Part shown: positions 1,426 to 22,364 of the stretch, piece by piece
Layout: every line of letters starts with the position of its first letter
Position numbering within the stretch: position 1 is the first letter of the stretch
DNA from: a virus
Lineage: Duplodnaviria; Heunggongvirae; Uroviricota; Caudoviricetes
DNA length: 37,134 nucleotides
Reading direction: 5' to 3' (one strand)
IMG/VR virus record: IMGVR_UViG_2703719349_000005
Notes under the pieces: model-generated
Databases searched by the model: none
Told to the model about the DNA's origin: nothing
What the model saw: the letters and a program-made list of their open reading frames with translations, nothing else
Position numbers and translations under genes: made by a program

Positions 1426-2001
1426 TTACCTAACGTACTTAATTGTTAAACTTATAATTTTTCCAATTATTTCAACATCTTCTATCTTGCACTCGAAGGA
1501 TCTGTTTCCACCTTCAACGAAGATTCTTCCACCGGGTAAACGAGTAATGTCGCGGATTGTTATTTCGCCATCAATACTTATTACCCATTTACCATCACGT
1601 ATATCATCAAATTCTTTATCACAAATAAATTCAGAATTGTTATCTGTGATGACAAAAGGTTTTTTAAACGTAGAGGGTAGAAATCCCTTATCAAAAATAT
1701 AAAAACCGTCTTCACGCAAGGCACCATCAGATAATACATACTTAGCAACTTCCATCGTATTTGTATTACCTGAAGTTTGCTTTGAACCATGTCCAGTTGT
1801 GAGCCAATTAAGCGAGGTGCCCGTTTCAAGGGCGCACTGGATTACCCATTCTGCTGGGAATGAGTCACGCATGTAGCGTGTAGCGAGTGTACTTTTAGAG
1901 ATTCCTAAATGATCGCACAACGCCTGTCGAGTTTTGAATCCATAAGCTTCTACCATGCGCTCTATAGCGCCTCGTCCGCCTTTCTCCAAATTCATGGTCA
2001 C
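1426..2001 (-). CDS. cI: CI-like immunity repressor (186-type, ~190 aa, N-terminal HTH)
   Basis: 191-aa ORF facing int, with an HTH-like N-terminus (TRQALCDHLGISKSTLATRYMRD). Size and position match phage 186 CI rather than the 99-aa P2 C. Confidence 0.75.
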   Translation of the reverse strand: MTMNLEKGGRGAIERMVEAYGFKTRQALCDHLGISKSTLATRYMRDSFPAEWVIQCALETGTSLNWLTTGHGSKQTSGNTNTMEVAKYVLSDGALREDGFYIFDKGFLPSTFKKPFVITDNNSEFICDKEFDDIRDGKWVISIDGEITIRDITRLPGGRIFVEGGNRSFECKIEDVEIIGKIISLTIKYVR

Positions 2002-2039
2002 CCCAAGTGAACTTTTATCTTGACGATTTCATGATGCGA

Positions 2040-2068
2040 TCGTATGTTTATGGTGTTCACAAAATACA
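2040..2068 (+). promoter_or_regulatory. Candidate sigma70 early lytic promoter (pR-like): -35 TTGACG (2040-2045), 17-nt spacer, -10 TATGTT (2063-2068)
   Basis: Hexamers read directly in the repressor/apl intergenic region, oriented toward apl-cII. Confidence 0.35.
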
Positions 2069-2120
2069 AACGATCCGTATTCGTCCTGATTAATCATCAT
2101 TAAACGAGGAATGTTGCATC

Positions 2121-2342
2121 ATGAGACCTAACATTTCAATCACTCTTACCACGCCTCATGTGACTATTGAACGCTATAGCGAGCTGACAGGACTGTCCAT
2201 CGATACCATCAATGACATGTTGGCTGATGGACGCCTTATCCGTCACCGTTTGCGCAAAGATAAAAAACGCGAAAAAGTGATGATCAACATAGCAGCCATG
2301 ACCGTTGATGCGCTTTCAGAATGCAATCTAAACCTTAATTAG
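2121..2342 (+). CDS. apl: Apl/Cox-like small DNA-binding protein (excisionase / switch regulator)
   Basis: 73-aa basic ORF, first gene of the rightward early operon, divergent from the repressor. Assignment is by position and size only. Confidence 0.5.
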
Positions 2343-2368
2343 TTCGATTCTGAAATACATCAGAGGCA

Positions 2369-2884
2369 TTGACCATGTTTGATTACCAAGTTTCCAAACA
2401 TCCACATTTTGATGAAGCCTGTCGTGCATTTGCACTGCGCCACAATCTGGTGCAACTGGCAGAACGTGCAGGCATGAATGTGCAGATTCTGCGGAACAAG
2501 CTGAACCCAGCTCAGCCTCATTTATTAACCGCACCAGAAATCTGGCTGCTTACCGATCTGACTGAAGATTCAACGCTGGTAGATGGTTTTCTGGCACAGA
2601 TTCACTGCCTGCCATGTGTACCGATTAATGAGGTTGCAAAAGAGAAACAGCCGCATTACGTCATGAGCGCAACTGCAGAGATCGGACGTGTTGCAGCAGG
2701 TGCGGTATCTGGTGATGTAAAAACTAGTGCCGGTCGTCGTGATGCTATCAGCAGCATTAACTCTGTAACACGACTGATGGCGCTGGCTGCTGTTTCATTG
2801 CAGGCCCGTTTACAGGCTAATCCTGCGATGGCGAGTGCAGTTGATACCGTGACTGGCCTCGGTGCTTCATTCGGTTTGCTGTGA
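2369..2884 (+). CDS. cII: CII-like lysogeny establishment regulator (186 CII family)
   Basis: 171-aa ORF whose translation ([24 protein letters not shown]...[40 protein letters not shown]...) matches my recollection of 186 CII in size and sequence. Confidence 0.7.
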
Positions 2885-2891
2885 GGTGCTT

Positions 2892-3092
2892 ATGCTGACG
2901 AAAGAACCATCATTTGCATCGCTGCTGGTAAAACAAAGCCCGGCAATGCACTACGGTCACGGCTGGATCATGGGTGAGGATGGTAAACGCTGGCATCCGT
3001 GCCGTTCACAAGATGAATTGCTGGCAGAACTATCTACGAAAAAACGGGGGAACAAATGGCTATTGAAGGCGCTGCGGCGACTGTTCCATTAA
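2892..3092 (+). CDS. Hypothetical early protein (~66 aa)
   Basis: ORF with GAGG 5 nt upstream of ATG at 2892, starting just after the cII stop. No recognisable motifs. Confidence 0.4.
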   Translation: MLTKEPSFASLLVKQSPAMHYGHGWIMGEDGKRWHPCRSQDELLAELSTKKRGNKWLLKALRRLFH

Positions 3093-3397
3093 GCCCCGGT
3101 GAACGCCTGAATGGACTTAATCACATAGCGGAATTAAGGGCGAAAGTTTTTGGCCTGAATATTGAGTCAGAGCTTGAGCGGTTTATTAAAGATATGCGTG
3201 ATCCACGGGATATCAATAACGAACAAAATAAACGAGCACTGGCAGCCATATTCTTTATGGCAAAAATTCCGGCTGAACGTCATAGCATCAGCATCAATGA
3301 GCTGACCACTGACGAAAAGCGGGAGTTGATTAAAGCAATGAATCATTTTCGTGCAGTGGTGAGCTTATTTCCCAGACGGCTAACCATGCCGAATTAA
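3056..3397 (+). CDS. Hypothetical early protein (113 aa)
   Basis: ORF in the early operon; no recognisable motifs. Confidence 0.45.
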   Translation: MAIEGAAATVPLSPGERLNGLNHIAELRAKVFGLNIESELERFIKDMRDPRDINNEQNKRALAAIFFMAKIPAERHSISINELTTDEKRELIKAMNHFRAVVSLFPRRLTMPN

Positions 3398-3464
3398 CCA
3401 ACTAATGAAATTAATGGCGTAAACCCGCCGGGTATCCCTTTATCTAAATTCAGGAGAATTGATT

Positions 3465-3698
3465 ATGCGTAATATTGAAATCCTCACGACTAAAACCGGA
3501 CCGGATGATGCAGGGCTTAATATTTTACTGACAGAGGCTCGTCTGGAAGAACGCCGGGCAAGGGCTGAAGCAATGGCAGCTCGCCTTGATAGCCTGGCGT
3601 GTCATATCTCATCCCGTCAGCTAAACCACGTGGAAGCGGCAGAACTGCTGCGTGTGACTGCTGAAGCAATCCAGAACGAAGCGCAGGAGATCCACTAA
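3465..3698 (+). CDS. Hypothetical early protein (77 aa)
   Basis: AGGAG-like site upstream of ATG at 3465; coiled-coil-like sequence. Confidence 0.45.
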   Translation: MRNIEILTTKTGPDDAGLNILLTEARLEERRARAEAMAARLDSLACHISSRQLNHVEAAELLRVTAEAIQNEAQEIH

Positions 3699-3925
3699 TG
3701 GCTGATGCAATGGATCTCGTACAGCAGCGCGTTGAAGAAGAACGCCAGCGCCATATCCGTGCTGCCCGTGCCAAAACACCGGGCGTGTCTCGCGTGCTTT
3801 GCATTGAGTGTGAAGCGCCAATTCCGCCAGCACGCCGCCGTGCCATTCCGGGTGTGCAGCTTTGCATTACCTGTCAGGAAATCGCAGAGCTGAAAGGCAA
3901 ACATTACAACGGAGGTGCTGTATGA
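3698..3925 (+). CDS. TraR/DksA-family C4 zinc-finger protein
   Basis: C-x2-C...C-x2-C motif (CIECEAPIPPARRRAIPGVQLCITCQ) in a 75-aa protein. Start overlaps the upstream stop (ATGA). Confidence 0.6.
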   Translation: MADAMDLVQQRVEEERQRHIRAARAKTPGVSRVLCIECEAPIPPARRRAIPGVQLCITCQEIAELKGKHYNGGAV

Positions 3926-4776
3926 GCACTATCCTGAAATGGGCGGGAAATAAAACCGCCATAATGTCCGAACTGAAAAAACACCTTCCTGCTGGCCCGC
4001 GACTGGTTGAACCTTTCGCGGGTTCCTGTGCTGTGATGATGGAGACGGATTACCCCAGCTATCTGGTTGCGGATATTAATCCTGATTTAATCAACCTCTA
4101 TAAAAAGGTTGCCGCTGATTGTGAATCGTTTATATCTCGCGCCAGAGTTTTATTTGAGATCGCAAACAGGGAGGTGGCTTATTACAACATAAGGCAGGAG
4201 TTTAATTACTCCACTGAAATTACTGATTTCATGAAAGCGGTATATTTTCTGTATCTCAATCGTCACGGTTACCGTGGTTTATGCCGCTATAACAAGAGCG
4301 GGCATTTCAACATTCCCTACGGTAATTATAAAAATCCGTATTTCCCTGAAAAAGAAATTCGCGCATTTGCAGAAAAAGCCCAGCGGGCAACGTTTTTCTG
4401 CGCCAGCTTTGATGAAACGCTGGCGATGTTGAAGGCGGGGGATGTGGTGTATTGCGATCCGCCGTATGACGGTACGTTTTCCGGCTATCACACTGATGGT
4501 TTCACTGAAGATGACCAGTATCACCTGGCATCCGTTCTTGAACATCGAGCATCTGAAGGACATCCGGTCATTGTTTCTAACAGTGACACGTCTTTGACCC
4601 GGTCTCTTTATCGTAATTTCACTCACCACTACATCAGGGCGAAACGCAGCATCGGCGTTGCAGCGGGGGAGGGAAAATTTGCAACAGAGATGATTGCCAC
4701 TAAATCTGCTAATTGGTTTAGTGCCGATTTTAGTAGGGGACGTGACTCTACTGTTATTTTCGGGGTGCAAGTGTGA
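3922..4776 (+). CDS. dam: DNA adenine (N6) methyltransferase, Dam family
   Basis: Translation [11 protein letters not shown]...EPFAGS...[16 protein letters not shown]...YCDPPY has the Dam SAM-binding and DPPY catalytic motifs. GGAGG upstream of ATG at 3922. Confidence 0.9.
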
Positions 4777-5603
4777 AAGAAATGCACCACGGAATTCATC
4801 ATTTCCATGGGACGCCTGTCTGGGGAAGTGCTGGCGACGTTCATCGTATTGCGGTGAGCGGAGCTGGTGCTTTCGTCTCCTATGTACGACCAGATCAGAT
4901 TGCGGCGTCCATTCAGCACGCTCAGGTCGTTGGCATTGATAACGGCGCATTTTCTGCATGGGGGCGTGGGCTAAAAATTAACTGGAGTGATTTTTATAAA
5001 TGGCTCCTGAACTATTACCACCATCCTAAGGTCGCTTTTTTTGTCATTCCTGATGTTGTGGACGGAGGTGAACGTGACAATGATGCCCTGATAAACGAAG
5101 TTCCGAAAATGTTCTACGGGAAGGCAACTCCCGTCTGGCATCTGCACGAGTCAATCGATCGGCTTATCGAGTTATGTCGTGAATGGCCTCGTGTCTGCTT
5201 TGGATCGTCTGGTGAATATGCGGCTATTAGAACTGCGCACTGGCATCGTCGTATGCAGGACGCTTTTGAAGCAATTTATTGCCGACACAATTTCAAAACA
5301 GCTGTTCATGGTTTGCGCATGCTTGACGGTCGTGTGTTGGGAAATTACCCACTGGCGACTGCCGACAGTACAAATCTTGCCTGCAATGTCCCCAAATTTA
5401 ATAGCAAATATCCTGAGCTTACGCGGGCTATTCAGGAGGCTGAGTATTCGCGCAATCTGACGGAAAAGGAGCTGAAAGCTGTCATTCTGAAAAACCGTTG
5501 CGCAATTTTAAAAGGTGCAATTGAAGCTGTTCGCCCACCTTCAGTTTCTGACTGGCTGTCGAATGGTTTGCAGCCTTCACAGCTCGAACTGGAGATTGCG
5601 TAA
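4773..5603 (+). CDS. Conserved phage protein, possibly TGT-fold / DpdA-like (DNA 7-deazaguanine transglycosylase-like)
   Basis: 276-aa ORF overlapping the dam stop (GTGTGA; GTG at 4773 or ATG at 4782). Weak resemblance to tRNA-guanine transglycosylase motifs: [10 protein letters not shown] (cf. DSGGFQ), [15 protein letters not shown]. No C-terminal zinc motif. The family call is tentative. Confidence 0.4.
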
Positions 5604-7975
5604 TGAACTACAGCTATTCCTGGAATGCTGAGAAAAAAGCAATCAATCCTTACGTAGAGACAGAAGAGCAATCTTCAGTTTCTGCGCTTTCAAACCTGAT
5701 CGCTCTGTACGCTGCCGATAACGAGCAGGAACACCTGCGCCGCGAGGTACTGAGTGATCAGGTCTGGGAGCGTTATTTCTTTAATGAATCCCGTGATCCT
5801 GTCCAGCGCGAAATGGAGCAGGATAAGCTCATTAGTCGGGCAAAGCTGGCGCATGAGCAGCAGCGTTTTAATCCAGATATGGTCATTCTGGCGGACGTCA
5901 ATGCCCAGCCTTCCCATATCAGCAAGCCGCTGATGCAACGTATTGAATACTTCAGCAGCCTTGGCAGGCCAAAGGCTTATTCCCGCTATTTGCGTGAGAC
6001 GATTAAGCCATGTCTGGAACGGCTGGAGCATGTACGCGACAGTCAGCTATCCACTTCTTTTCGCTTTATGGCAAGCCATGAAGGGCTGGACGGCCTGCTG
6101 ATTCTGCCTGAAATGAGTCAGGATCAGGTGAAACGCCTGTCCACCCTGGTAGCTGCGCATATGAGTATGTGCCTTGATGTAGCTTGTGGTGATTTGTATG
6201 CCACCGATGATGTTAAGCCAGAAGAAATCCGCAAGACATGGGAAAAGGTGGCTGCAGAAACCCTGCGACTGGATGTCATACCGCCTGCGTTTGAGCAACT
6301 CCGCCGGAAAAGAAACCGCCGCAAACCTGTGCCTTATGAACTCATCCCGGGTTCGCTGGCGCGTATGCTGTGCGCCGACTGGTGGTATCGGAAATTATGG
6401 AAGATGCGTTGCGAATGGCGGGAAGAGCAGTTGCGTGCTGTCTGCCTGGTCAGCAAAAAAGCATCTCCCTATGTCAGCTATGAAGCCGTGATGCATAAAC
6501 GTGAGCAGCGCCGTAAGTCGCTGGAGTTTTTCCGTTCTCATGAACTGGTGAACGAAGACGGCGACACGCTGAACATGGAGGATGTGGTAAACGCCAGCAG
6601 CAGCAACCCGGCGCATCGCCGCAACGAGATGATGGCCTGTGTTAAAGGCCTGGAGCTTATCGCGGAAATGCGTGGTGACTGCGCCGTTTTCTACACCATC
6701 ACCTGTCCGTCACGTTTCCATTCCACGCTAAATAACGGCAGGCCAAACCCGACCTGGACCAACGCGACAGTAAGACAAAGCAGTGATTATTTGGTCGGCA
6801 TGTTTGCTGCATTTCGTAAGGCGATGCACAAAGCCGGATTGCGCTGGTATGGCGTGCGGGTGGCTGAGCCGCATCATGACGGTACAGTTCACTGGCACCT
6901 GTTGTGTTTTATGCGCAAAAAAGACCGCCGCGCCATCACTGCATTACTGCGTAAGTTTGCCATTCGTGAAGACCGCGAGGAGCTGGGTAATAACACGGGA
7001 CCACGCTTTAAGTCTGAGCTGATAAACCCGCGCAAAGGTACGCCAACAAGCTACATCGCGAAATACATCAGTAAGAACATTGACGGGCGTGGTCTGGCTG
7101 GTGAGATCAGCAAGGAAACGGGTAAATCCCTGCGTGATAACGCTGAATACGTTAATGCCTGGGCGTCTCTGCATCGTGTTCAGCAATTCCGCTTCTTTGG
7201 TATTCCGGGGCGTCAGGCTTACCGTGAACTGCGATTGCTGGCTGGTCAGGCGGCAAGGCAGCAGGGGGACAAAAAAGCAGGTGCGCCGGTACTGGATAAC
7301 CCACGCCTTGATGCCATCCTGGCTGCTGCTGATGCTGGCTGTTTTGCCACCTACATCATGAAGCAGGGCGGCGTGCTGGTTCCCCGCAAATATCACCTTA
7401 TCAGAACAGCTTATGAAATTAACGAAGAGCCGACCGCCTATGGCGATCACGGTATTCGTATTTATGGCATCTGGTCACCCATTGCAGAGGGTAAGATCTG
7501 CACTCATGCAGTGAAGTGGAAAATGGTTCGTAAAGCCGTTGACGTTCAGGAGGCGGCAGCCGACCAGGGCGCTTGCGCCCCTTGGACTCGTGGCAATAAC
7601 TGTCCCCTTGCTGAAAATTTGAACCAACATGAGAAAGATGAATCAGCAGATGGGGATACCAGAACGGACATTACCTGCATGGATGACAAGGAATTGCACG
7701 ATTACCTGCACAGTATGAGCAAAAAAGAGCGCCGGGAACTGGCAGCAAGATTGCGCCTGGTTAAACCGAAACGGCGTAAAGACTACAAACAGCGAATTAC
7801 AGAGTATCAGCGTCAGCAGCTCGTCTATGAACTGAAGTCCAGAGGATTTGATGGCAGCGAGAAAGAGGTCGATTTGCTCCTTTGCGGTGGCAGTATTCCG
7901 TCAGGAGCAGGCCTGCGTATCTTCTATCGGAACCAGCGTTTGCAGGAAGATGATAAGTGGCGGAACCTGTATTAA
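5603..7975 (+). CDS. A: Replication initiation protein A (rolling-circle nickase)
   Basis: 790-aa ORF at the P2 gene A position, with HxH-type metal motif ([10 protein letters not shown]) and a tyrosine region ([11 protein letters not shown]) typical of gpA. Confidence 0.88.
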
Positions 7976-8129
7976 TCACGCGGGTTAACAATTCGTGCTC
8001 TTAATAATACCAGGCATATCAGGCTGATGAACGTAAAAAAACGTTTTACATCAGTAAGATTATTATATACTGTAAATATAAACAGTGGTTATATGTACAG
8101 TATTGCGTATGGTGTTATAGGAGGAAAGA

Positions 8130-8317
8130 TGCAGGACTATTTTTTGGAGTCTTTGAAGCTCCAGCGCATTGATTTTTTTCTTAAGCTTGTAGCGGCTAGT
8201 GAGTGTAGTGATGAAGAGAAGGGGCTAGCTCTGCAGTGGGTTTCTGAATTGACTGATGAGTTGATGGCGAAAATTCGAAGCCATGAATACAGTAGGTCGA
8301 TGGATGTAATCAGTTGA
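8130..8317 (+). CDS. Small hypothetical protein (62 aa)
   Basis: AGGAGG 5 nt before ATG at 8130; a hairpin follows downstream. AT-rich. The longer six-frame ORF from 8027 is probably upstream extension. Confidence 0.45.
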
Positions 8318-8350
8318 GCTTGTTTCGTTAGGACTTGATAAGGGAACCGA

Positions 8351-8369
8351 AAAGGGGCATTAAGCCCCT
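8351..8369. terminator. Bidirectional stem-loop between convergent genes
   Basis: AAGGGGC-attaa-GCCCCTT inverted repeat between the 8130..8317 (+) gene and the 8385..8684 (-) gene. Confidence 0.4.
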
Positions 8370-8384
8370 TTCTCATAAGTTGAT

Positions 8385-8684
8385 TTAGTTGTTACCCAAA
8401 GAGCCGGCCATGGCTGCATATTTAATTTCTTCGCTGGGTATTTCAGGATGTAGTTGAATTTGCCTGATGATATAGCCAGGAACTTCTTCACTCCACAGTT
8501 TCGCCGCGTCCTTACAGACCTTATACGCGAAGTCTCTATTCTCAAAGGCATAGGATTTTCCGTATGCATATTGCTGACAGGCATGAACATAAGCTCCGAA
8601 GTCGCCGTCTTTATCTGGCAAAGCACATCCAGCTAAGGCTATGATGATTGCTACTAACGTAAAGGAGAAAGTTATACGTTTCAT
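8385..8684 (-). CDS. Small lipoprotein (99 aa), unknown function
   Basis: Signal peptide with lipobox (MKRITFSFTLVAIIIALAGC). Confidence 0.6.
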   Translation of the reverse strand: MKRITFSFTLVAIIIALAGCALPDKDGDFGAYVHACQQYAYGKSYAFENRDFAYKVCKDAAKLWSEEVPGYIIRQIQLHPEIPSEEIKYAAMAGSLGNN

Positions 8685-8792
8685 GGTCTCTTTCTAAGCG
8701 TTTAGCATTATTTAACTAAGGGGTATCTGCCGTGATTTGGTAGTCCCTGATATATATTCTCAGGGACTATGCTGAAGTAGCTTTAATTTTGA

Positions 8793-9600
8793 TTATTTAG
8801 AAAGGTACTTATCTCTAAGTTGATTCAGTCTGTCAGCATCGCGTTCTGAAAACTCGGCGTCACCATAGATCGATTTCCCATCTGCGTCTTCAAGGCCAAT
8901 GACTGTGACGGTAAATATAGCATCAGCCGGAACTTTAAGTTTTCCCCAATCAGAGTATCTATTAGGGGCTAATTTCCAGTTGGCTTTCTCACCTGGTTCC
9001 AGACCTCCAGAAATTTTATAGTTGAAGACGTCAGAGAACCAAGGGACGCTTCTTCCTGGGCTGGCAATAACTCCTTTGAAGAATACTCTGGCAACCGCTT
9101 TGTCTGTTCCGTTTTCAACGCTAATATCCAGAATTGGCTGATCATTGCCGTAATCCTCTTTCTGGAAATAAAAACGGGAACGTTCGACCTTGAAGGCTTT
9201 CATTTTTTCCGCAGCCTGTGTTGCAGAGGTTTGTTTGGCTTCCAGTTCTTTTATTTCTTGCAGAGCCTGTTCTTTCTCTCTCTTCTCACGCTCAAGGCGA
9301 ATAGTTTGTGCGTAATTTATAACCTCATCACCAGTTTTACCTTCCAACGCTGACTTAATTTTTGTTTCGTAGACGTCCCCAGAAGACGTTCCAGCCTGCA
9401 TTAGCTCTCTCATGTTGATTTGGCTAAAGGCAACGACTTTAACTGCATCATCAAACTGAGCTTTTTTATCTGCAGGTAAGGACTCTCTTACTTTTTGAAT
9501 GGACTCTTTCATCGACTGATCGCTTGATGCATCGATCTTCGGTTTGTCACAAGCAGTAAGCAGCAGAGCAAAAGCAATTACGCCAGTTAATTTCTTCATA
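8793..9600 (-). CDS. Lipoprotein with central coiled-coil (269 aa), unknown function
   Basis: Likely start is ATG at 9600 (MKKLTGVIAFALLLTACDKP, lipobox LTAC). Central EREKREKEQALQEIKELEAKQ coiled-coil and a beta-rich C-terminal half. The six-frame ORF extends to 9671 but the lipobox start is preferred. Confidence 0.6.
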
Positions 9601-10128
9601 TCCCTATCCCAATCGTAAAAAAACAAGGCTAATCCTAACAGGATTAGCGGGCATGACAAACTCATAGCCATATAGGTGTGCTGTATAAATTAGCGGGATG
9701 AGAAAGCCTGCACAGACCCTCATGTTGAAACTTGATTTTAGCTCAAAAGAGCTGACACTAAATAACTGCGCGGAATAATGCTCCACTTTCGGTTAGCCCT
9801 TGGCCCTTGGCCCTTGCTGGGTAAGGCGTGGGGCCGTTTTCTTCGCCTGATCCTGCTGTATCTGGCCTACAGTAGGTTGTCCTTACGCGACATGCCACAT
9901 GTCAGTAAACGGCAGGTGTAGCAGTATTAGACGCAGCTATTTAGTGTGTATTAAGCTGGCTCATATTTATGACTGGTTTCAAGGTTTGACCGATTTTCAT
10001 GTCATGCATGTCTATGCTGCATGAGTTCGCATGATCGTTTGAGGATCGGTTTGGCTAAGACATGCCAGAACTGGCGGGCTTTTGCTCATGTCATGCAGGT
10101 GCATGAAAACTACTACATAAAGCGGGCA

Positions 10129-10147
10129 GGCGTGGCGGGGATACGAG
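10129..10147. other. Candidate cos (cohesive-end) site
   Basis: GGCGTGGCGGGGATACGAG shares its first 13 nt with the recalled 186 cohesive end (GGCGTGGCGGGGAAAGCAT; P2 GGCGAGGCGGGGAAAGCAC). Lies in a ~670-bp non-coding region at the expected map position between the A-side cargo and Q. Confidence 0.45.
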
Positions 10148-10273
10148 CGCGCGCTTAAGGATAAATTGAAGTTGATTTAATTTTTCGACATGGATAATCT
10201 TAACTACGTATGATTATTGATAAAAAATAAACATAAACAATTGTAGCGGATCTTAAAACTTATTAGGATTAGT

Positions 10274-11335
10274 ATGCTTAAAACAAATAAGGTATTTATT
10301 GACACACAAACGTACGTAAAGGCTGGTCTTCATTTTGAGGGGGTAGCATTTAAAGCTTTCCATGAATTATGTGCGAAAGGTGATTTAGTCTTAATTACAA
10401 CTACAGTTGTAGAGAGAGAAGTAAAAGGTAAAATAGAGGAATCAATAAAGGATGCTCTGCAGGCTATAAACACAGTACAAAGAAAAGCTAGGCTTTTGAA
10501 TAGTATTGATAATGGACCGCTCCATGATTTTTTTCAGCAATTTAACGAACATGAAATTCACGAAGCAGCACAAAAAGTTTTTGATGATTTTTTGAAAGGA
10601 TGTCACGCCAAATTAGCTACAATAGAAGTGATAGATCTTAATGAGGTTTTAGATAAATACTTTGGCAAAGAACCACCATTTGGGCAAAATAAGAAAAAAA
10701 GTGAGTTTCCTGATGCAATCACTTTAGCTGCGGTAGAGCGATTTGTTAATGATGAAGATGTGTATATCATTTCTGAGGATAGTGACTTAAAAAATTATTG
10801 TGATGGTAAAAACAATCTTCATCAAATTGATTCACTTGATAAGTTTCTAGGTGAATACAATACGCATACAAACGAATTAAGTAATAAATTGATGCAGTTT
10901 ATCGAAAGCAAACGTGAAGACATAAGAGCGGACGTAATTGCCCAACTCAATGATGCCGATGGATATAACGTTTCAACTTGGGAAGACGCTGAATTGGATT
11001 CATTTGAAGTCGTCAATATTGATGACTTTGAACCATCAATAATTAAGATTAACAATAATTATTGTCTAGCGACCTTCTCTGTTTCTGTAGATTTTGAAGT
11101 TACTGTTTCTGGTCCAGACTTTAATAATGGGTATTGGGATAGCGAAGATAAAGTAATGATTCCAATGGAGACAACCACACGAACTGAAGTTCAAGAGATT
11201 AGTTTCGATATTGAAATTGAAGTTATGTATGAAATCGAGGATGGTGAATTAACAGATATCGCATTTGATGTGAATATTGATAAGTTATCCCGAGGGATTG
11301 AGTTCTCTATTGAAGAAAATAATTTTGAATATTAA
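10274..11335 (+). CDS. PIN-like nuclease-domain protein with acidic C-terminal domain (353 aa); candidate defence / exclusion cargo
   Basis: N-terminal VFIDTQ (Asp in strand 1), VVEREV, SEFPDAITLAAV and ISEDSDL acidic motifs are consistent with a PIN fold. C-terminal ~180 aa is D/E-rich and beta-rich. Very AT-rich. Confidence 0.5.
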   Translation: MLKTNKVFIDTQTYVKAGLHFEGVAFKAFHELCAKGDLVLITTTVVEREVKGKIEESIKDALQAINTVQRKARLLNSIDNGPLHDFFQQFNEHEIHEAAQKVFDDFLKGCHAKLATIEVIDLNEVLDKYFGKEPPFGQNKKKSEFPDAITLAAVERFVNDEDVYIISEDSDLKNYCDGKNNLHQIDSLDKFLGEYNTHTNELSNKLMQFIESKREDIRADVIAQLNDADGYNVSTWEDAELDSFEVVNIDDFEPSIIKINNNYCLATFSVSVDFEVTVSGPDFNNGYWDSEDKVMIPMETTTRTEVQEISFDIEIEVMYEIEDGELTDIAFDVNIDKLSRGIEFSIEENNFEY

Positions 11336-11372: not shown

Positions 11373-12401
11373 TTATAATGTATATATTTCAAAATTTATA
11401 ATTTCATGACCAAGCCATCTGTTTATTTCCATGAATCTTTTTTGAAGTGGTAATAGTTCATTTCTTACGAAGATGCAGCTCGCCTTCTCCACATCACCAA
11501 AACCCCCAACATTATTCGGCAAAATTCCCATCATCTGAGGCGGTACGCGGTGTGCCGCCATCATGTCATCACGGCTGACGTTCTTGATGCTCAGAAATTC
11601 ATCCTTCGCCGCGACTTCTGACAACGGGATGATCTGAAGCCCGTCCTTTTTGCCGTTAGGCGAGTACATAAACAGGTTGCGGAAGTTGCCAGGGCCTTTG
11701 GCGCTTTTCATCGCATTGCGGAGGTTGTTCACATCCTCCTGGTTCTGCGCGGCATCGGTCATGTACATGATGAAGCCTGCATGGCTGCCGTTAATGTAAT
11801 ACTTCCGGCGGAACAGCGTGGCGGACTCGTTGAGCAGGGCTGACGGAATGGCAGAAAGATAACCTGGTAGGCCGTAGATCTCCTGGTTGATGTCAGGTTC
11901 CATCAGATGAAAAATGCTGCCTTTCGTGAACTGATACGGCTGGGTTGTCATACCGTATTGCACAAACCAGTAGGTATCCAGGTCTAACCCGCGTCGGGTG
12001 TATTTTGCCAGAGCAGGCTCAAGGGCGATAACTTCACCGAAGCGGTTCGTGCGTTTCTCCAGGTAGGCGTTACCAAATACCAGATAGTCCTGCACAAAAC
12101 GTGAAAAAGCCTGCTGGCTGAGCAGCGGGTGAGGGATGTAGGTACTGGTCAGAATGTTGCACTTTACTGCAATCGGAGAACTGTGATGCACGGCGGCGCG
12201 GAAGGTGCGCGCCAGTCCGTCAAAGCTGACGGGCGGCTCATACCAACGGTCCATCTGTACGCATTCCACATAGTCCAGCAGTTCACGGCGGTCCAGAACA
12301 GGAACGGGATCACCGAAGCTGAATGCTTCGGCTGAAGTCTGGCTTTTATGCTGGATCTGGTTCGTCGACGCAGCGCGGTTCTTCTTACTCTTTCCCATCA
12401 A
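11373..12401 (-). CDS. Q: Portal protein (gpQ)
   Basis: 342-aa ORF at the P2 Q position, upstream overlap with terminase gene P on the same strand. Confidence 0.88.
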   Translation of the reverse strand: MMGKSKKNRAASTNQIQHKSQTSAEAFSFGDPVPVLDRRELLDYVECVQMDRWYEPPVSFDGLARTFRAAVHHSSPIAVKCNILTSTYIPHPLLSQQAFSRFVQDYLVFGNAYLEKRTNRFGEVIALEPALAKYTRRGLDLDTYWFVQYGMTTQPYQFTKGSIFHLMEPDINQEIYGLPGYLSAIPSALLNESATLFRRKYYINGSHAGFIMYMTDAAQNQEDVNNLRNAMKSAKGPGNFRNLFMYSPNGKKDGLQIIPLSEVAAKDEFLSIKNVSRDDMMAAHRVPPQMMGILPNNVGGFGDVEKASCIFVRNELLPLQKRFMEINRWLGHEIINFEIYTL

Positions 12402-14164
12402 AAAATCTCCACAATATTACTGGTATTGGCGGACTCGCCCTGCAGTGGTTCGTTAAACAGTGCGTGCATTGTTGCCCAGGCCAGATCGGCGTGGCTGGCT
12501 TCTTCGCTGCGGCTGGCTTCATAGGTCGGGCGGTTGCCGCTGGCGGTGGTTGCGCGACGGATTGCCATGAATGACTGCGCAATGTCGGTGTGTCCGGCGT
12601 CAAACTCCAGACGGCGGTGGCTGATAATGTCGTAGGCCTTGAGTACCAGGGCGTTTTTAACGTTGGGGTTGTAGACAAACTCCCGGACGGCAGGAAAGAA
12701 CGCTTTCACGTTCTCATAAACCCCGTGACCGACACCTGTCGAGTCGATGCCGATATATGTCACGTTGTACTGTTCGGTCAGTTTTTTGATGGCGTCCGCC
12801 TGGGCGCGGAAGTCCATCCCGCGCCACTGGTGACGCTCAAGAATACGGAACTTACCGCCCGGCACGGCTGGCGGAGCCACCACCACGCATCCGGCACTGT
12901 CGCCGTTCTGCGTACCTTTTGCCGGGTCATAACCGATCCACACTTCGCGCCAGCCAAACGGGCGCAGCGCCAGTGCATGAAAGTCGGTCCAGACTTCCCA
13001 GCTGTCCACCATGCACGCCTGCAATTCGCTGAGCGGGAACACAGATGCGAGATCGTCAACGAACTCGCACATCAGCAGGTTCTGGTATTCGTCCGGGCTG
13101 TACTCCATGCGCAACTGGTCGAGGTCGAACAGGTTACAGCCGCCGCGTACCGCATCTTCCACGGTGACTATCTGGCGGTATTGCCCGTCTGCGCACAGCA
13201 GGCCGGGGGCCAGATTGCTGTGGGACAGGTCGATGTCCACCTTATCGGCTTTGTTGCGCCCACGGTTGAACAACGCGCCGGACCAGAACGGATAAGCACT
13301 GTGGGTCAGGCTGGATGGCGTGGAAAAATAGGTCTGTCGCCATTTCTTGTGAATAGCCATACCGGAAGCCACTTTGCGCAGCTCCTGAAATTTTGGTATC
13401 CAGAAATATTCATCCAGATACAGGTTGCCGTGATAACTCTGGGCCGTGCGGGCATTGGTGCCTAGGAAGTAAAGCGTGGCCCCGTTAGGAAGCACCATCG
13501 GATCGCCTTTCAGCTCCACCTCCACTTCTTTGGCGAAGTCGATGATGTACTGCTTAAAGACGTGGGCCTGTGCCTTACTGGCGGAAAGGAAAATCTGGTT
13601 ACGCCCGGTAAGCAGAGCGTCAATCAGGGCTTCACGGGCAAAGTAAAAGGTTGCGCCGATCTGGCGTGACTTCAGCAGGTTGCGGATGCGGTTGGTTTTT
13701 CCGGCTTCCCACCAGTGGCGCTGGTAGTTGAACATGGAGGAATGGAAGATTTCTTCCAGCTTCTCAATCTGTTCATCGGTGAAGACATTCTTTTCCGGCT
13801 GACGGCGTGGGCCTTTGTTGCGGTTGGCGACGTTAGGGTTTAAGTCGGCTTCGTTGCCGCCATTGTTAAACTTGCCGATCCGCGCGTGGCGTTCCGACTG
13901 GCGCGCCAGCAGGTCAATCTCTTTGAAATCTTTCCCTTCTTTGTGCTCCTTCATAATGAGCTGGCAGTAGCGTGCGGCGGTGGTGAGCTGCATCTGATCC
14001 AGCGGCCCATAGTCACCCCACTTGTCGCGTTTTTTCCAGCTGTGAACGGTTGCAACTTTCTCGCCCAGCATTTCAGCAATGCGGGCTACGCGGTATCCCT
14101 GAAAGTACAGCAGCATGGCCTGCCGACGGGGATCGAGATCTGCGGGTGTCAGTGTGGTGTTCAT
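12398..14164 (-). CDS. P: Terminase large (ATPase) subunit (gpP)
   Basis: 588-aa ORF matching P2 gpP in size, position and Q-P arrangement; starts divergently from O. Confidence 0.88.
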   Translation of the reverse strand: MNTTLTPADLDPRRQAMLLYFQGYRVARIAEMLGEKVATVHSWKKRDKWGDYGPLDQMQLTTAARYCQLIMKEHKEGKDFKEIDLLARQSERHARIGKFNNGGNEADLNPNVANRNKGPRRQPEKNVFTDEQIEKLEEIFHSSMFNYQRHWWEAGKTNRIRNLLKSRQIGATFYFAREALIDALLTGRNQIFLSASKAQAHVFKQYIIDFAKEVEVELKGDPMVLPNGATLYFLGTNARTAQSYHGNLYLDEYFWIPKFQELRKVASGMAIHKKWRQTYFSTPSSLTHSAYPFWSGALFNRGRNKADKVDIDLSHSNLAPGLLCADGQYRQIVTVEDAVRGGCNLFDLDQLRMEYSPDEYQNLLMCEFVDDLASVFPLSELQACMVDSWEVWTDFHALALRPFGWREVWIGYDPAKGTQNGDSAGCVVVAPPAVPGGKFRILERHQWRGMDFRAQADAIKKLTEQYNVTYIGIDSTGVGHGVYENVKAFFPAVREFVYNPNVKNALVLKAYDIISHRRLEFDAGHTDIAQSFMAIRRATTASGNRPTYEASRSEEASHADLAWATMHALFNEPLQGESANTSNIVEIF

Positions 14165-15155: not shown

Positions 15156-16214
15156 ATGAAGAAGAATACCCGCTTTGCTTTTAACGCTTACCTGCAGCAG
15201 CTGGCGCGTCTGAACGGTGTGGCAGTTGAAGAGCTGTCCAGCAAGTTCACCGTGGAGCCGTCCGTGCAGCAGACGCTGGAAGACCAGATCCAGCAGTCCG
15301 CCGCTTTCCTGACGCTGATTAATGTCACCCCGGTGACTGAACAGTCCGGTCAACTGCTGGGGCTGGGTGTTGGTAGTACCATTGCCGGAACCACTGATAC
15401 CACCGCAAAAGAGCGTGAGCCTGTCGATCCGACGCTGATGGGCGATGTGGAATATAAATGCGAGCAGACCAACTTTGACACGGTGCTGACCTACGCGAAG
15501 CTGGACCTGTGGGCGAAATTTCAGGATTTCCAGGTGCGTATCCGTGACGCCATCGTGAAACGTCAGGCACTGGACCGCATCATGATCGGCTTTAACGGCG
15601 TGAAGCGTGCGAAAACCTCCAACCGTAGTGAAAACCCGCTGCTGCAGGATGTGAACAAAGGCTGGCTGCAGAAAATCCGTGAGGATGCACCGGATCACGT
15701 CATGGGCAGCAGCACCACAGGCGGTGAAACCACACCGGGCGCGGTGAAAGTCGGTAAAGGTGGCGAATATGCCAACCTGGACGCCGTGGTGATGGATGCC
15801 GTCAATGAGCTTATCGACGTGGTCTACCAGGACGATGACGATCTGGTGGTGATTTGCGGTCGTGAACTGTTGTCTGACAAGTATTTCCCACTGGTCAACA
15901 AAGAGCAGGAAAACAGTGAAAAACTGGCTGCCGATATGATCATCAGTCAGAAACGCATGGGTGGCCTGCAGGCCGTGCGTGCGCCGTTCTTCCCGCCGAA
16001 TGCACTGCTGATCACCCGTCTGGATAACCTGTCCATCTACTGGCAGGAAGACACCCGCCGCCGTTCAGTTATCGACAACCCGAAACGTGACCGGATTGAA
16101 AACTTTGAATCCGTTAATGAAGCCTATGTGGTTGAGGACTACCGCTGCGCCGCACTGGTGGAAAATATCCAGATTGGTGATTTCAGCGCCGCCGCAGCCG
16201 AAACCGGAGCGTAA
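15156..16214 (+). CDS. N: Major capsid protein (gpN)
   Basis: 352-aa translation (MKKNTRFAFNAYLQQLARLNG...FTVEPSVQQTL...) resembles P2 gpN. Confidence 0.9.
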   Translation: MKKNTRFAFNAYLQQLARLNGVAVEELSSKFTVEPSVQQTLEDQIQQSAAFLTLINVTPVTEQSGQLLGLGVGSTIAGTTDTTAKEREPVDPTLMGDVEYKCEQTNFDTVLTYAKLDLWAKFQDFQVRIRDAIVKRQALDRIMIGFNGVKRAKTSNRSENPLLQDVNKGWLQKIREDAPDHVMGSSTTGGETTPGAVKVGKGGEYANLDAVVMDAVNELIDVVYQDDDDLVVICGRELLSDKYFPLVNKEQENSEKLAADMIISQKRMGGLQAVRAPFFPPNALLITRLDNLSIYWQEDTRRRSVIDNPKRDRIENFESVNEAYVVEDYRCAALVENIQIGDFSAAAAETGA

Positions 16215-19280: not shown

Positions 19281-19674
19281 AGCGGTGCCTTATGTCCGCA
19301 ATAACCCGGACAAACTGCATCTGTTTGTGGATAACGGTTCGCTGGTTGCCACGGGGGCCAGCTCCATGTCGTGGGAGTACCGTTACACCCTGAACGCGGT
19401 GATTGAGGATTTCAGCGGCGACCAGAATCTGCTGATGGCCCCGGTTTTGCTGTGGCTGAGGGATAACCAGCCCGATGCCATCAATAACCCGGCGTTACGG
19501 GAAAAGCTATTCACCTTTGAGGTGGATATTTTGCGCAACGATGTCTGTGATATCAGCCTTAACCTGCAACTGACGGAGCGTGTGCTGGTCAGCACTGACG
19601 GCAGTGTGTCGAGCGTTGAAGCGGTAGCGGAACCTGATGAACCTGAAGAAATGTGGACGGTGAAATGTGGCTGA
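19243..19674 (+). CDS. R: Tail completion protein (gpR)
   Basis: Likely GTG start at 19243 (VNKPQSLRHALNKAV...), which aligns with the recalled P2 gpR N-terminus (MLKPDSLRRAL...). Confidence 0.78.
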   Translation: MNKPQSLRHALNKAVPYVRNNPDKLHLFVDNGSLVATGASSMSWEYRYTLNAVIEDFSGDQNLLMAPVLLWLRDNQPDAINNPALREKLFTFEVDILRNDVCDISLNLQLTERVLVSTDGSVSSVEAVAEPDEPEEMWTVKCG

Positions 19675-20104
19675 ACTGCAGAAGGTGGATGAGTGGCTGG
19701 CGGCCTTGCTGGCGAATCTGGAGCCTGCCACACGCCAGCGTATGATGCGGGAACTGGCGCAGGAGTTGCGCCGCAATCAGCAGGAGAATATCAGGCTGCA
19801 GCTTAACCCTGATGGCAGCGGCTTTGAGCCGCGCCGGGTAGCAGCCCGCAGTAAGAAGGGGCGCATCAAACGCCAGATGTTCGCCAAATTGCGCACTAAT
19901 AAATACCTGAAAACTGCCGCCACAGCGGATTATGCCTGCGTGTATTTTGATGGAAAAGTCCAGCGCATCGCCTGTGTACACCACTATGGACTGCGTGACC
20001 GTGTTAGTCGAAGAGGTTTAAAAGTACAGTACCCTGAGAGAAGGCTTTTAGGATTTACTAAGGATATTAGTAACTTGAACTTGGGTGTTTACTTAAAACG
20101 CTAA
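19667..20104 (+). CDS. S: Tail completion protein (gpS)
   Basis: 145-aa ORF at the P2 S position; last ~20 codons become AT-rich (see findings). Confidence 0.8.
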   Translation: MAELQKVDEWLAALLANLEPATRQRMMRELAQELRRNQQENIRLQLNPDGSGFEPRRVAARSKKGRIKRQMFAKLRTNKYLKTAATADYACVYFDGKVQRIACVHHYGLRDRVSRRGLKVQYPERRLLGFTKDISNLNLGVYLKR

Positions 20105-20249: not shown

Positions 20250-22208
20250 ATGATAGTAGGGATTTTTTTAAGGTATTTTAAAACATACAACGGAAATCAT
20301 TACATACCGTTATCTTCTGGAAGTCAGTTTTGTGGAATTGTTGGTAACAATGGAATTGGCAAAAGTTCTGTTCTTGAGGCTTTAGATTCGTTTATTAATA
20401 ACAAACCATGGAATATTAATTCTTCATTTAAAAGAACCTCCAGTGACAGACCTTCTCCACATATTGTTCCTTTATATCTTATAAAGCGAGAGGAATTACA
20501 TGAAGATCATCATGCTAAAGCTGAAATCTTAACGCAATTAGTATTAGAATATAGCAATAGTAATGCTGATGTTACATTGACGCCAACAACACGAAATATA
20601 ATTAATACGTTTTTTGAACATATTAACAAATTAAAAAGAAATTTAAATCTCCAAGATTATTTTTTGATCCCTCTGGGTGTCGAGAAAGATGGTGATGTAA
20701 GTATTTCGATTCTTAATGGGAAGAGTTTATGTCGACTTTTGGAGGTTGATAATCCCGATAATAAAGTTTCGAGCGAGTTGCTTAGTGAGCACTTTGGGTA
20801 TTTATTACATCATGTCCGCCATAAGTATGAATATATATATATTCCAAAGGATATAGACTCTGAATCGTTTACGAAGCTAGAAACAAGTGAAGTACAAAAG
20901 TTGATGGGTGAGTCTTTAGAGCAGATAATTAAAGATAGAATATCTGATAGAACCATAAGTCAAATCAATACAGGGCTTGCCAAATTTCTGGATGGTGTTG
21001 AAGAGGAGCTTGAAGAATATGGTTATAGAACATCTGGCGAGAGACAATCGCGATTAAAAAAGAAAGATGTTTATAATTTGATTATCGAAGCATTCTTCAA
21101 GGTTAGGAAATTAAATAAAAAGCAGAATTCAGGTTGGATTGAAATTAGCTCGCTAAGTTCAGGGGAGAAGCAACGTGCAATAATGGATATTGCATATGGG
21201 TTTCTTACCAATCATCGAGAAAATGGCGATAATCTGATTATTGGAATTGATGAGCCAGAATGTTCTCTTCATATGTCTGCATGTTTTGAACAATTTGAAA
21301 AGCTCTATTCTATTAGTGGTATATGTGAACAATTAATATTTACTTCACATTGGTATGGCTATCTTCCAACCGTCGAAAATGGATGTACCACAACTATCCT
21401 TAAAACAGATTCAACTCATCATTTTGAATTATATGATCTTGCCAGTTATAGAGAAGAAGTCAGGAAGAAAGTAAAAACCTCTTCCCCGGGTATGCCATTT
21501 GATATAAAAATAAAAAGTGTAAATGACCTTATACAATCCATAATATCTAGCTGTTTGGCTGAGAAACCTTACAATTGGTTGATTTGTGAGGGTACTACAG
21601 AAAAAATATATCTTTCGCATTATCTAAAGGACTTGGTAGAAAATAAAAGGCTAAGGATTGTGCCTGTAGGGGGAGCTAGTGAAGTTAAAAAAATATTTAA
21701 GCATTTAGAAGCTTCTTATGAAGAGTTCAAAAAAGACCTCAAAGGAAAAGTGTTCTTACTAACCGATACAGATTCAGAGTTGGTGTCATATGATACCCCA
21801 GTTATGCCGCATGTTGTTTGTAAGCGAATTGTTAGTGTAGGTGATTCAGTGAAGTTGGTTGATATTTCTTCCAATCCAGTTTCTCCTGCAACAGAAATAG
21901 AGGATTGTCTTAATCCTGTATCGTTTATAGAGGCTTTAACATCATTTTCTTCACGTTTTCCTGAGCTTCAGGCATTGCTGCCTAATAGTAATGTTATGAT
22001 AGATGAAAGACATTCATCGTTTGCTGCGATGGATTTGTCACCCAAGAACAAAAAAACGCTTGATGCTTTTTTTGACCGTGAAGGGATTAAGTTTGATTTT
22101 TCAAAGGAATATATTTCAATCTGTGAGCGAAATGAGCGGAAAAGGCCAGAGTGGATTGCCAAAATTGAAAATTTTTTTATAAGTGATAAACCTGTAAAGT
22201 TTAATTGA
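20250..22208 (+). CDS. OLD/GajA-like ABC-type ATPase fused to Toprim-like nuclease domain (652 aa); candidate antiphage cargo
   Basis: Walker A GNNGIGKSS, ABC-signature-like LSSGEKQ, Walker B LIIGIDEPE, H-loop-like TSHW. C-terminal Toprim-like acidic motifs WLICEGTTEK, IVPVGG, FLLTDTDSE. Strongly AT-rich relative to flanking phage genes. Confidence 0.65.
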   Translation: MIVGIFLRYFKTYNGNHYIPLSSGSQFCGIVGNNGIGKSSVLEALDSFINNKPWNINSSFKRTSSDRPSPHIVPLYLIKREELHEDHHAKAEILTQLVLEYSNSNADVTLTPTTRNIINTFFEHINKLKRNLNLQDYFLIPLGVEKDGDVSISILNGKSLCRLLEVDNPDNKVSSELLSEHFGYLLHHVRHKYEYIYIPKDIDSESFTKLETSEVQKLMGESLEQIIKDRISDRTISQINTGLAKFLDGVEEELEEYGYRTSGERQSRLKKKDVYNLIIEAFFKVRKLNKKQNSGWIEISSLSSGEKQRAIMDIAYGFLTNHRENGDNLIIGIDEPECSLHMSACFEQFEKLYSISGICEQLIFTSHWYGYLPTVENGCTTTILKTDSTHHFELYDLASYREEVRKKVKTSSPGMPFDIKIKSVNDLIQSIISSCLAEKPYNWLICEGTTEKIYLSHYLKDLVENKRLRIVPVGGASEVKKIFKHLEASYEEFKKDLKGKVFLLTDTDSELVSYDTPVMPHVVCKRIVSVGDSVKLVDISSNPVSPATEIEDCLNPVSFIEALTSFSSRFPELQALLPNSNVMIDERHSSFAAMDLSPKNKKTLDAFFDREGIKFDFSKEYISICERNERKRPEWIAKIENFFISDKPVKFN

Positions 22209-22318: not shown

Positions 22319-22346
22319 AGAGGGTTTATTTCTTTTCAAAGAAAAT

Positions 22347-22364
22347 TGTATCTTCTTTTATACA
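22347..22364 (+). promoter_or_regulatory. Late-promoter activator dyad TGT-N12-ACA upstream of V
   Basis: TGTATCTTCTTTTATACA read directly, about 50 bp upstream of the V start. Confidence 0.5.

Follow-up and report, generated by a model that had tools for sequence, protein, structure and literature searches.

A 276-aa open reading frame (ORF) lying between dam and the replication gene gpA of an E. coli P2-like prophage encodes a DpdA-family protein of the TGT superfamily. The prophage was analysed as a stretch of 37,134 nucleotides (the window; IMG/VR record IMGVR_UViG_2703719349_000005). The ORF product is probably a compact, zinc-less (beta/alpha)8-barrel of the 'DpdA-only' clade found in gamma-proteobacterial phages, and we establish here its family membership and fold, the conservation of its catalytic constellation, its position in an operon and the absence of que genes around it. 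By analogy with characterised relatives we infer a DNA substrate, the identity of the inserted base and any protective effect that the modification may confer. The gene family, including the close copy in the P2-like phage SEN1, was already catalogued in 2019: the 'DpdA-only' phages of Hutinet 2019 (PMC6884629, Supplementary Data) include SEN1 (YP_009217891, gp38), HK106, PEAT2, SE131 and 7-11. Our search of the literature on DpdA in P2-like phages yielded nothing beyond this catalogue and the paper on Pantoea phage MED16.

Chance cannot account for the ORF, which is a real gene. It has 4312 homologues at E<=1e-3 in a set of 5.8 billion proteins, and 551 homologues among representatives of 50%-identity clusters; in about 100 E. 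coli genomes the reading frame is intact, with at least 98.9% conservation. RefSeq nevertheless labels it "hypothetical protein", because no Pfam or NCBIfam model covers the family; its recognition as DpdA closes this annotation gap. The GTG start at 4773 falls within the GTGA that holds the dam stop codon, so that the two genes share 4 nt; the first-pass annotation of the sequence had noted an overlap, and its coordinates are exact. PGAP places the start of the copy in E. coli ZF34 at ATG 4782 instead. The overlapping start is the better supported, because the Klebsiella and Enterobacter homologues both begin at the codon equivalent to 4773, with ATG and GTG respectively, and with the same 4-nt overlap with the dam stop; the Enterobacter gene has no nearby ATG.

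Features of the early region of the prophage, with positions given in the window
Feature	Position	Strand	Details
CI repressor gene	1426-2001	minus	
Candidate early promoter, TTGACG-17-TATGTT	2020..2048	+	Consensus match only
CII/CP76 gene	2369-2884		P2/186 gene order
TraR/DksA-type C4 zinc-finger gene, 75 aa	3698..3925	+	PF01258 3.1e-11; TIGR02419 3.9e-18; PHROG 54
dam, Dam-family N6-adenine DNA methyltransferase, 284 aa	3922..4776, ATG-TGA	+	PF02086; TIGR00571; PADLOC orphan MTase
Mosaic block relative to P2-like phages with dam directly followed by gpA (Cartapus, KP12)	4700..5677	+	Pairwise alignments
DpdA-family (TGT-superfamily) guanine transglycosylase-like gene, 276 aa, without Zn motif	4773..5603, GTG-TAA	+	
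gpA replication endonuclease, 790 aa	5603..7975	+	PF05840 6.4e-127; PHROG 91 2.5e-286

Tight packing extends to both sides of the gene pair: the zinc-finger gene overlaps the start of dam (ATGA), and the stop of the DpdA-like gene overlaps the start of gpA (TAATG). A sigma-70-like scan of the plus strand found a single match in 2000-8400; it lies just beyond the divergent CI repressor gene, and no further promoter-like site follows up to 8400. In view of the P2/186 gene order, we regard this site as the candidate early promoter of an operon containing dam, the DpdA-like gene and gpA. A terminator-like hairpin at 4731-4753 was set aside, such sites being no commoner in the region than chance predicts (10 found against 6.7 +/- 2.9 expected).

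The identity of dam, described as clear in the first pass, is confirmed. Its product exceeds the cutoffs of both Pfam PF02086 (1.9e-75, 254 bits, cutoff 22) and TIGR00571 'Dam family' (1.1e-94, 317 bits, cutoff 114.85), matches the PADLOC orphan MTase model at 1e-109, and contains the DPPY (CDPPYDG) and EPFAGSCAV motifs of an AdoMet-binding, D12-class enzyme. The score against the E. coli Dam equivalog NF008152 falls below the cutoff (287 vs 441 bits), and GATC specificity is a presumption from family membership.

Assignment of the downstream gene to the DpdA family draws on profile, structural and homology evidence. Its product matches PHROG 887 ("queuine tRNA-ribosyltransferase") at E 8.4e-96, and is 75.5-75.7% identical to the proteins of Salmonella phages SW9 and SEN1, 54.7% identical to MED16 DpdA, 38% to a coliphage HK106 protein and 34-36% to phage 7-11 DpdA and SE131. 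Alignment of a 58-member family profile with the validated DpdA of phage CAjan (hhalign, 98.7%, E 1.6e-16, 170 columns) pairs IDNGAFS with LDSGAFS, WHLHE with FHFGE, HGLRM with LHAFG and ADST with CDSS. The AlphaFold2 model (pLDDT 87.3, pTM 0.86) has eight beta/alpha units and forms a (beta/alpha)8 TIM barrel closest to TGT/DpdA structures. A Foldseek search of BFVD returned 30 matches at E<=1e-3, and every named one is a viral queuine/queuosine tRNA-ribosyltransferase. The first-pass annotation had guessed at a TGT/DpdA-like protein, and had made this guess depend on whether profiles or structures would reveal a resemblance to the TGT fold; both kinds of method recover that similarity, and homology to published DpdA proteins supports the guess further.

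Canonical TGT proteins are linked to the family by no sequence method that we tried. Pfam and NCBIfam searches of the ORF gave no match (none to PF01702 at E<=1), PF01702 matched 0 of the 58 family members, and CAjan DpdA did not match it either. The family profile aligned to a single E. coli Tgt sequence at 1.4% in hhalign. In the PDB, phmmer with the ORF, hmmsearch with the family profile and phmmer with CAjan DpdA all returned nothing. For MED16 DpdA, an HHpred match to the structure 2ASH at 99.18% has been reported. None of the PADLOC models matches the ORF, and therefore nothing ties it to their Dpd or CBASS models.

The TGT-like segments noted in the first pass map to residues 54-63 (the ten-residue counterpart of DSGGFQ), 143-149 (FGSSGEY) and 179-186 (HGLRMLDG). 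Across 58 sequences at 29-74% identity, the sole invariant residues are D56, D94, H123, H179, D198 and S199, which the model places at the ends of strands b3, b4, b5, b7 and b8. D56 (with F60), D94 and D198 lie at the ends of b3, b4 and b8, respectively; D56 and D198 pair with Asp residues of CAjan DpdA in the hhalign alignment, and H123, at the end of b5, pairs with the His of CAjan FHFGED. With residue roles taken over from PMC10164549, the predicted catalytic set consists of D56 as acid/base, F60, D94, H123, the G144-G147 loop, H179 and D198 as nucleophile. The corresponding b3, b4, b5 and b8 positions of S. Montevideo DpdA hold D95, D130, H181 and D256, and Cap10 has a D248/H226 pair. DpdA2 lacks the 'position 196' His, whose S. 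Montevideo counterpart H181 contacts the base. Mapping of the base-binding Asp is inexact, because CAjan DpdA has a Ser opposite D94, with its own Asp falling opposite the non-conserved D97 (hhalign and MAFFT). A CxCxxC zinc motif is absent from the ORF, CAjan DpdA and 7-11 DpdA; E. coli Tgt carries CDCYTC at residue 302. The two phage enzymes lack the motif, and a zinc site is therefore not required for phage DpdA, in keeping with the earlier remark that the protein resembles phage DpdA in missing the zinc motif of tRNA-TGT.

The closest counterparts are the other members of the 'DpdA-only' clade (the P2/186-like SEN1 and SW9, 7-11, SE131, MED16, HK106 and PEAT2), which share PHROG 887, a length of about 240-276 aa, the missing zinc motif and phage genomes without preQ0-synthesis genes. 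The SEN1 gene is found in the identical slot immediately upstream of gpA, but the upstream neighbour in SEN1-type phages is a DUF5405 gene, whereas here and in the Enterobacter and Klebsiella prophages it is an overlapping dam. The validated preQ0 DNA transglycosylases of the Queuovirinae (DpdA1 of CAjan and Enterobacteria phage 9g) have catalytic motifs that align with those of the ORF, and deletion of dpdA in CAjan abolishes dPreQ0. Identity to the CAjan protein is only about 20%, however, and CAjan, about 32% of whose G is modified, carries its own FolE, QueD, QueE and QueC, unlike the present prophage with its lack of que genes. S. Montevideo DpdA (7UI4), from the bacterial Dpd restriction-modification system, also differs: it is 413 aa long, with a large Ins8 and a CXCX2CX22H zinc site that the ORF lacks, and it belongs to an 11-gene dpd cluster in which the DpdB ATPase is needed, whereas the neighbours of the ORF are dam and gpA. 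E. coli Tgt (PF01702) differs similarly, having 375 aa and both a zinc domain and tRNA-binding insertions that are missing from the ORF.

We propose that the gene shares the early (lytic) operon transcript of dam and gpA and is probably coupled translationally to both. By analogy with TGT and DpdA chemistry, Asp198 would displace guanine from double-stranded DNA to give a covalent ribosyl-enzyme intermediate, with Asp56 as general acid/base. A free 7-deazaguanine base, bound by D94 and H123, would then resolve the intermediate. The inserted base may be preQ0 or a close relative (ADG, preQ1), supplied by the host FolE-QueD-QueE-QueC pathway. No que genes were found when the 37 window ORFs were scanned against family libraries, and the base would be host-derived because the prophage has no preQ0-synthesis genes. 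The ORFs outside the early/regulatory and cargo sets match canonical P2-type structural and lysis families. E. coli synthesises preQ0. The matching prophages sit in E. coli chromosomes, and both queA and tgt were seen in MG1655. Replicating phage DNA would thus acquire sparse dPreQ0 or dADG alongside the m6A deposited by Dam, the presumed benefit being evasion of some host nucleases. The bacterial DpdA needs the ATPase DpdB, and the prophage contains no such partner.

How much modification to expect can be gauged from LC-MS/MS measurements on relatives, in which phage 7-11 DNA contained 50 dADG per 10^6 nt (about 0.02% of G) and MED16 DNA 354 per 10^6 nt (about 0.13% of G). The dADG of these two phages, putatively the work of their DpdA proteins, and the loss of dPreQ0 in the CAjan deletion point by analogy to a similar chemistry for the present protein. 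The first-pass suggestion that methylation and deazaguanine form a two-layer anti-restriction strategy is unproven and finds no support among the nearest characterised relatives: 0.02-0.13% of G is modified, according to the MED16 authors, the restriction enzymes that they tried were minimally affected, and the pairing with dam is not a conserved trait of the family.

Such low levels raise the question of whether the enzyme places a few site-specific marks per genome rather than providing bulk anti-restriction, possibly by direct insertion of ADG in the absence of a DpdC-type hydratase, with the marks serving anti-defence, replication or packaging. The relatives' phages carry dADG only and have no recognisable DpdC, and the present prophage is small, with almost no unassigned genes that might supply a hydratase. 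In three genera of P2-like prophages, moreover, the gene lies immediately upstream of the replication nickase gene and overlaps it. We nonetheless consider this account of the present gene quite unlikely. Linkage to gpA is not general, because lambdoid copies sit in a lysis cassette away from replication genes, and low levels could simply reflect a limiting supply of host preQ0. The broader proposition is that zinc-less, partner-less 'DpdA-only' enzymes mark each genome at a handful of specific sequences, possibly by direct insertion of the QueC reaction intermediate ADG, for which they would need neither a DpdC-type hydratase nor a DpdB-type ATPase; this is tentative and also unlikely. If true, this nearly fully assigned prophage would represent a minimal one-gene system explaining the dADG of phages 7-11 and MED16.

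Three further readings are less likely. A Cap10-like or tRNA-directed TGT relative would work on protein-linked deazaguanine or RNA, and we rate this as very unlikely: in sequence the protein is related to CAjan DpdA, a DNA enzyme that has been validated, and it has neither the zinc domain nor the tRNA-binding insertions of TGT. Cap10 of type IV CBASS (PDB 9NTN) binds an N-terminally deazaguanylated protein and is partnered by the QueC-like Cap9 and a CD-NTase, genes for neither of which occur in the window or around the homologues in the seven contexts compared, and it is 11% identical to the ORF product in structural alignment. It is about as improbable that the gene is a prophage exclusion or defence factor, which might remove or swap the deazaguanine of modified phages that superinfect the lysogen, or else mark the DNA of the lysogenic host. 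P2-like prophages are rich in defence cargo and proteins that sense deazaguanine DNA exist, but the gene lies inside a repressor-controlled early lytic operon, outside the known cargo slots and with no promoter-like site of its own; it has no nuclease partner, and the virulent phages 7-11 and MED16 carry homologues. Hardly any weight attaches to the idea of a decayed or functionless passenger, or of a TIM-barrel enzyme with unrelated chemistry. Empty Pfam, NCBIfam and PDB sequence searches and the existence of truncated or fused variants (P0011, P0121) would suit it; the intact and conserved reading frame, six polar residues kept invariant across the divergent family and the specific match to CAjan DpdA would not. 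Our preferred reading is that of a 'DpdA-only' transglycosylase acting on phage DNA.

An E. coli P2-like prophage is perhaps the most tractable setting for 'DpdA-only' biochemistry. Most of its small genome is assigned, que and tgt mutants of the host are available, and nature provides sister prophages that carry or lack the cassette. About 2% of complete E. coli genomes carry the gene, among them the common strains ATCC 8739 (99.0% identity) and APEC O78, as do about 8% of E. coli dam-gpA prophages, a patchy distribution that fits a trade-off with defences sensing deazaguanine DNA.

Comparison with phages in which gpA directly follows dam reveals a mosaic block made up of the last ~25 dam codons, the DpdA-like gene in its entirety and the first ~25 gpA codons. 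Similarity to Cartapus ends at about 4700 and resumes at about 5678, and megablast of 3600-6000 against phages gave 58 records, with 59% query coverage only, in 2 pieces. A clean insertion of the DpdA-like gene is ruled out, since the replaced stretch also takes in the 3' end of dam on one side and the 5' end of gpA on the other. An obligatory Dam-DpdA module is likewise ruled out by the neighbours seen elsewhere: besides the DUF5405 gene of SEN1-type phages, two lambdoid prophages have the homologue between a holin-like gene and an endolysin gene, and in the Flyfo siphovirus (61% identity) it directly follows a YhhQ/Vut_1-family transporter gene, an arrangement that counts in favour of the DpdA reading. 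The cargo of the present prophage includes an OLD-like nuclease and a PIN-domain gene; in the ZF34 prophage the same slot is occupied by an RM pair.

Five independent lines agree on the TGT/DpdA likeness of the 276-aa ORF, although direct sequence searches are silent. Judged by its conservation, the ORF is a real gene, with 4312 homologues at E≤1e-3 and a family of 551 representatives of 50%-identity clusters. No Pfam domain was found among the homologues, nearly all of which carry the source name 'hypothetical protein'; direct Pfam and NCBIfam searches with the ORF gave no match, none of 58 diverse family members matches Pfam TGT, and neither a sequence nor a profile search of the PDB yielded anything for the family. 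PHROG 887 (queuine tRNA-ribosyltransferase) matches the whole protein at 8.4e-96. By tblastn against phage genomes, the protein is 75.5-75.7% identical to proteins of the Salmonella P2-like phages SW9 and SEN1, 54.7% identical to DpdA of Pantoea phage MED16, 38% to a protein of HK106 and 34-36% to those of the Salmonella phages SE131 and 7-11. Hutinet et al., in their Supplementary Data, count SEN1, HK106, PEAT2, SE131 and 7-11 among the 'DpdA-only' phages. According to the MED16 paper, the nearest viral homologues of MED16 DpdA are SW9 gp39 and SEN1 gp38, and MED16 DpdA itself has an HHpred match of 99.18% to Thermotoga TGT. A profile of the 58 members (29-74% identity) aligned with the experimentally validated phage enzyme CAjan DpdA at 98.7% probability (E 1.6e-16, 170 columns), pairing IDNGAFS/LDSGAFS, WHLHE/FHFGE, HGLRM/LHAFG and ADST/CDSS (family/CAjan); hhalign of the family profile against the single E. 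coli Tgt sequence found nothing. The profile match, PHROG 887 and homology to phage DpdA proteins bear out the guess of the first-pass annotation that this gene is TGT/DpdA-like.

The only invariant columns in the 58 sequences are D56, D94, H123, H179, D198 and S199, which the AlphaFold2 model places at the C-terminal ends of strands b3, b4, b5, b7 and b8. In S. Montevideo DpdA, D95 (b3) is the general acid/base, D130 (b4) and H181 (b5) bind the base and D256 (b8) is the nucleophile (PMC10164549); F99 lies four residues after D95, as F60 does after D56 in the 276-aa protein. One weak point is that the CAjan DpdA residue aligned with D94 is Ser; the empty hhalign comparison with E. coli Tgt is another. 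As had been noted for phage DpdA proteins, the ORF lacks the CxCxxC zinc motif, which is present in E. coli Tgt and absent from both CAjan and 7-11 DpdA.

A tRNA TGT is ruled out, since the ORF has neither a Zn domain nor tRNA-binding insertions nor a Pfam match. The DpdA of a bacterial Dpd system would bring DpdB-K, an Ins8 insertion, a Zn site or a PADLOC match for the ORF; none was found, and this candidate is also excluded. Cap10 has a D248/H226 pair similar to D198/H179, and is ruled out by the absence of a Cap9 gene and a CD-NTase gene from the window and seven homologue contexts. The product of the 276-aa ORF is a member of the phage DpdA family and, by analogy, would work as such; within the family it falls in the 'singleton' DpdA-only group of gamma-proteobacterial phages that was described in 2019. 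The finding holds, but its kind was already known: the catalogue published in 2019 (Hutinet et al., PMC6884629) includes a P2-like phage orthologue of 75% identity. This E. coli prophage makes the clade's substrate, target sites and benefit readily testable.

No que genes were found among 37 window ORFs scanned against family libraries (canonical-size P2 ORFs at 12398-14164, 15156-16214, 22987-23346, 24836-26566, 27133-28305, 28885-29187 and 29302-32391 lay outside the scan), and the prophage is therefore a 'DpdA-only' element. Early or regulatory genes, canonical structural and lysis genes of P2 type, and cargo with no relation to queuosine account for the scanned ORFs. If the chemistry follows that of TGT and DpdA, D198 would displace guanine in duplex DNA, and the covalent intermediate thus formed would be resolved by free 7-deazaguanine supplied by the host through FolE-QueD-QueE-QueC. 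The protein would presumably act on replicating phage DNA in lytic growth, alongside Dam. CAjan, with its own preQ0 synthesis, has ~32% of its G modified. The only chemistry on phages related by this clade is the level of dADG in 7-11 (50 per 10^6 nt, ~0.02% of G) and in MED16 (354 per 10^6 nt, ~0.13% of G), and the MED16 authors describe a minimal effect on the restriction enzymes tried. With dADG so sparse and its effect so small, the proposed two-layer anti-restriction strategy of methylation plus deazaguanine is plausible in kind, though these levels do not support it in degree. Nor is the combination new, since MED16 already pairs a Dam-like methylase with the same DpdA type.

The dam gene is as unambiguous as first annotated (PF02086, 1.9e-75; TIGR00571, 1.1e-94, above cutoff; PADLOC orphan MTase, 1e-109). 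Junctions of ATGA (TraR/dam), GTGA (dam/ORF) and TAATG (ORF/gpA) leave no spacers between TraR, dam, the 276-aa ORF and gpA. In the PGAP annotation the ORF begins at ATG 4782; orthologues in Klebsiella (ATG) and Enterobacter (GTG, no ATG nearby) begin at the codon that corresponds to 4773, with a 4-nt dam overlap, and on these sequence grounds 4773 is the better reading. This start points to translational coupling to dam, which the earlier annotation had also favoured. Only one plus-strand promoter-like site was found in 2000-8400; it adjoins the repressor gene and is consistent with expression of the ORF from an early lytic promoter.

Features of the prophage and of related loci (window positions unless another sequence is named)
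Feature	Position	Strand	Remarks
CI repressor	1426-2001	minus	
Promoter-like site	2020-2048	plus	
dam	3922-4776		
Mosaic block	4700-5677		
276-aa ORF	4773-5603	plus	GTG to TAA
Cargo slot	8385-11335		between gpA region and portal gene
DUF6694 protein	8793-9671	minus	292 aa; cargo slot
PIN_12 + DUF7339 protein	10274-11335	plus	353 aa; cargo slot
Tail-completion gene S	19667-20104		
OLD-family nuclease-like gene	20250-22208	plus	652 aa; AAA_15 2e-17, AAA_21, OLD-like TOPRIM 1.8e-6
Baseplate gene V	22346-22990		
YhhQ/Vut_1-family gene and homologue, Flyfo siphovirus Tbat1_6 (L006)	3525-4783		homologue 61% identity
Homologue, lambdoid prophage L009	5001-5810		64-67% identity (with L016)
Homologue, lambdoid prophage L016	4001-4804		
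ORF gene, E. coli ATCC 8739	NZ_CP033020.1 3047740-3048570		99.0% identity

The gene behaves as a mobile phage cassette, not tied to dam. gpA directly follows dam in most of the P2-like relatives, Klebsiella phage KP12 and Escherichia phage Cartapus among them. Similarity to Cartapus breaks off at ~4700, in the 3' end of dam, and resumes at ~5678, inside gpA, so that a mosaic replacement block holds the ORF. Because the last ~25 residues of Dam and the first ~25 of gpA fall within this block, the recombination breakpoints lie inside the flanking genes and a clean insertion is ruled out. Of 5426 complete E. coli genomes, the dam/gpA region is present in 1244 and the ORF in only 107; 103 of these copies are at least 95% identical, and those listed sit between dam and gpA. 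Prophages of Enterobacter (84% identity) and of Klebsiella (66%) show the same order, with 4-nt overlaps; Salmonella 186-like phages have a DUF5405 gene in dam's place. Such patchy spread would fit a cost from defences against deazaguanine DNA, e.g. GrwAB or Dag1/Dag2. Two metagenome/Logan proteins, an in-frame Dam(1-193)::ORF(48-276) fusion (P0011) and one in which residues 1-150 of the ORF are joined to another protein sequence (P0121), seem to be deletion variants from this type of prophage, and the cassette is therefore decaying in some lineages. APEC O78 strains and the widely distributed ATCC 8739 carry the gene, and are ready-made lysogens for testing.

Homologues also occur in other contexts. 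In two lambdoid E. coli prophages one lies between a holin-like and an endolysin gene, within the lysis cassette, where expression would be late, not early. The endolysin gene of L009 is Peptidase_M15_4, with a ParB_N-N6_N4 methyltransferase gene just downstream; the L016 homologue has a 112-aa gene on one side and a CHAP-domain gene on the other. In the bat-gut siphovirus Tbat1_6, the homologue is directly downstream of a YhhQ/Vut_1-family gene (PF02592, 4.7e-10), and that family is the preQ0/preQ1 transporter family. This neighbour is an independent context tying the clade to 7-deazaguanine metabolism, and the pair suggests phage-borne uptake-plus-insertion for 7-deazaguanine bases.

The window is a P2/186-like prophage whose early part runs through integrase, CI, CII/CP76, DUF5347, DUF2732, a TraR/DksA zinc finger, Dam, the 276-aa ORF and gpA, followed by canonical P2 structural genes and then the host genes ybjL and ybjM. 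Positions 3600-6000 are 98-99% identical to E. coli chromosomal prophages, e.g. in ZF34 and APEC O78. The OLD-like gene, inserted between S and V, occupies a second variable slot of the prophage and is cargo or a defence gene. Neither cargo protein between gpA and the portal gene has a PADLOC match; in ZF34 the equivalent slot is taken by genes for a NotI-family restriction enzyme and a cytosine methyltransferase.
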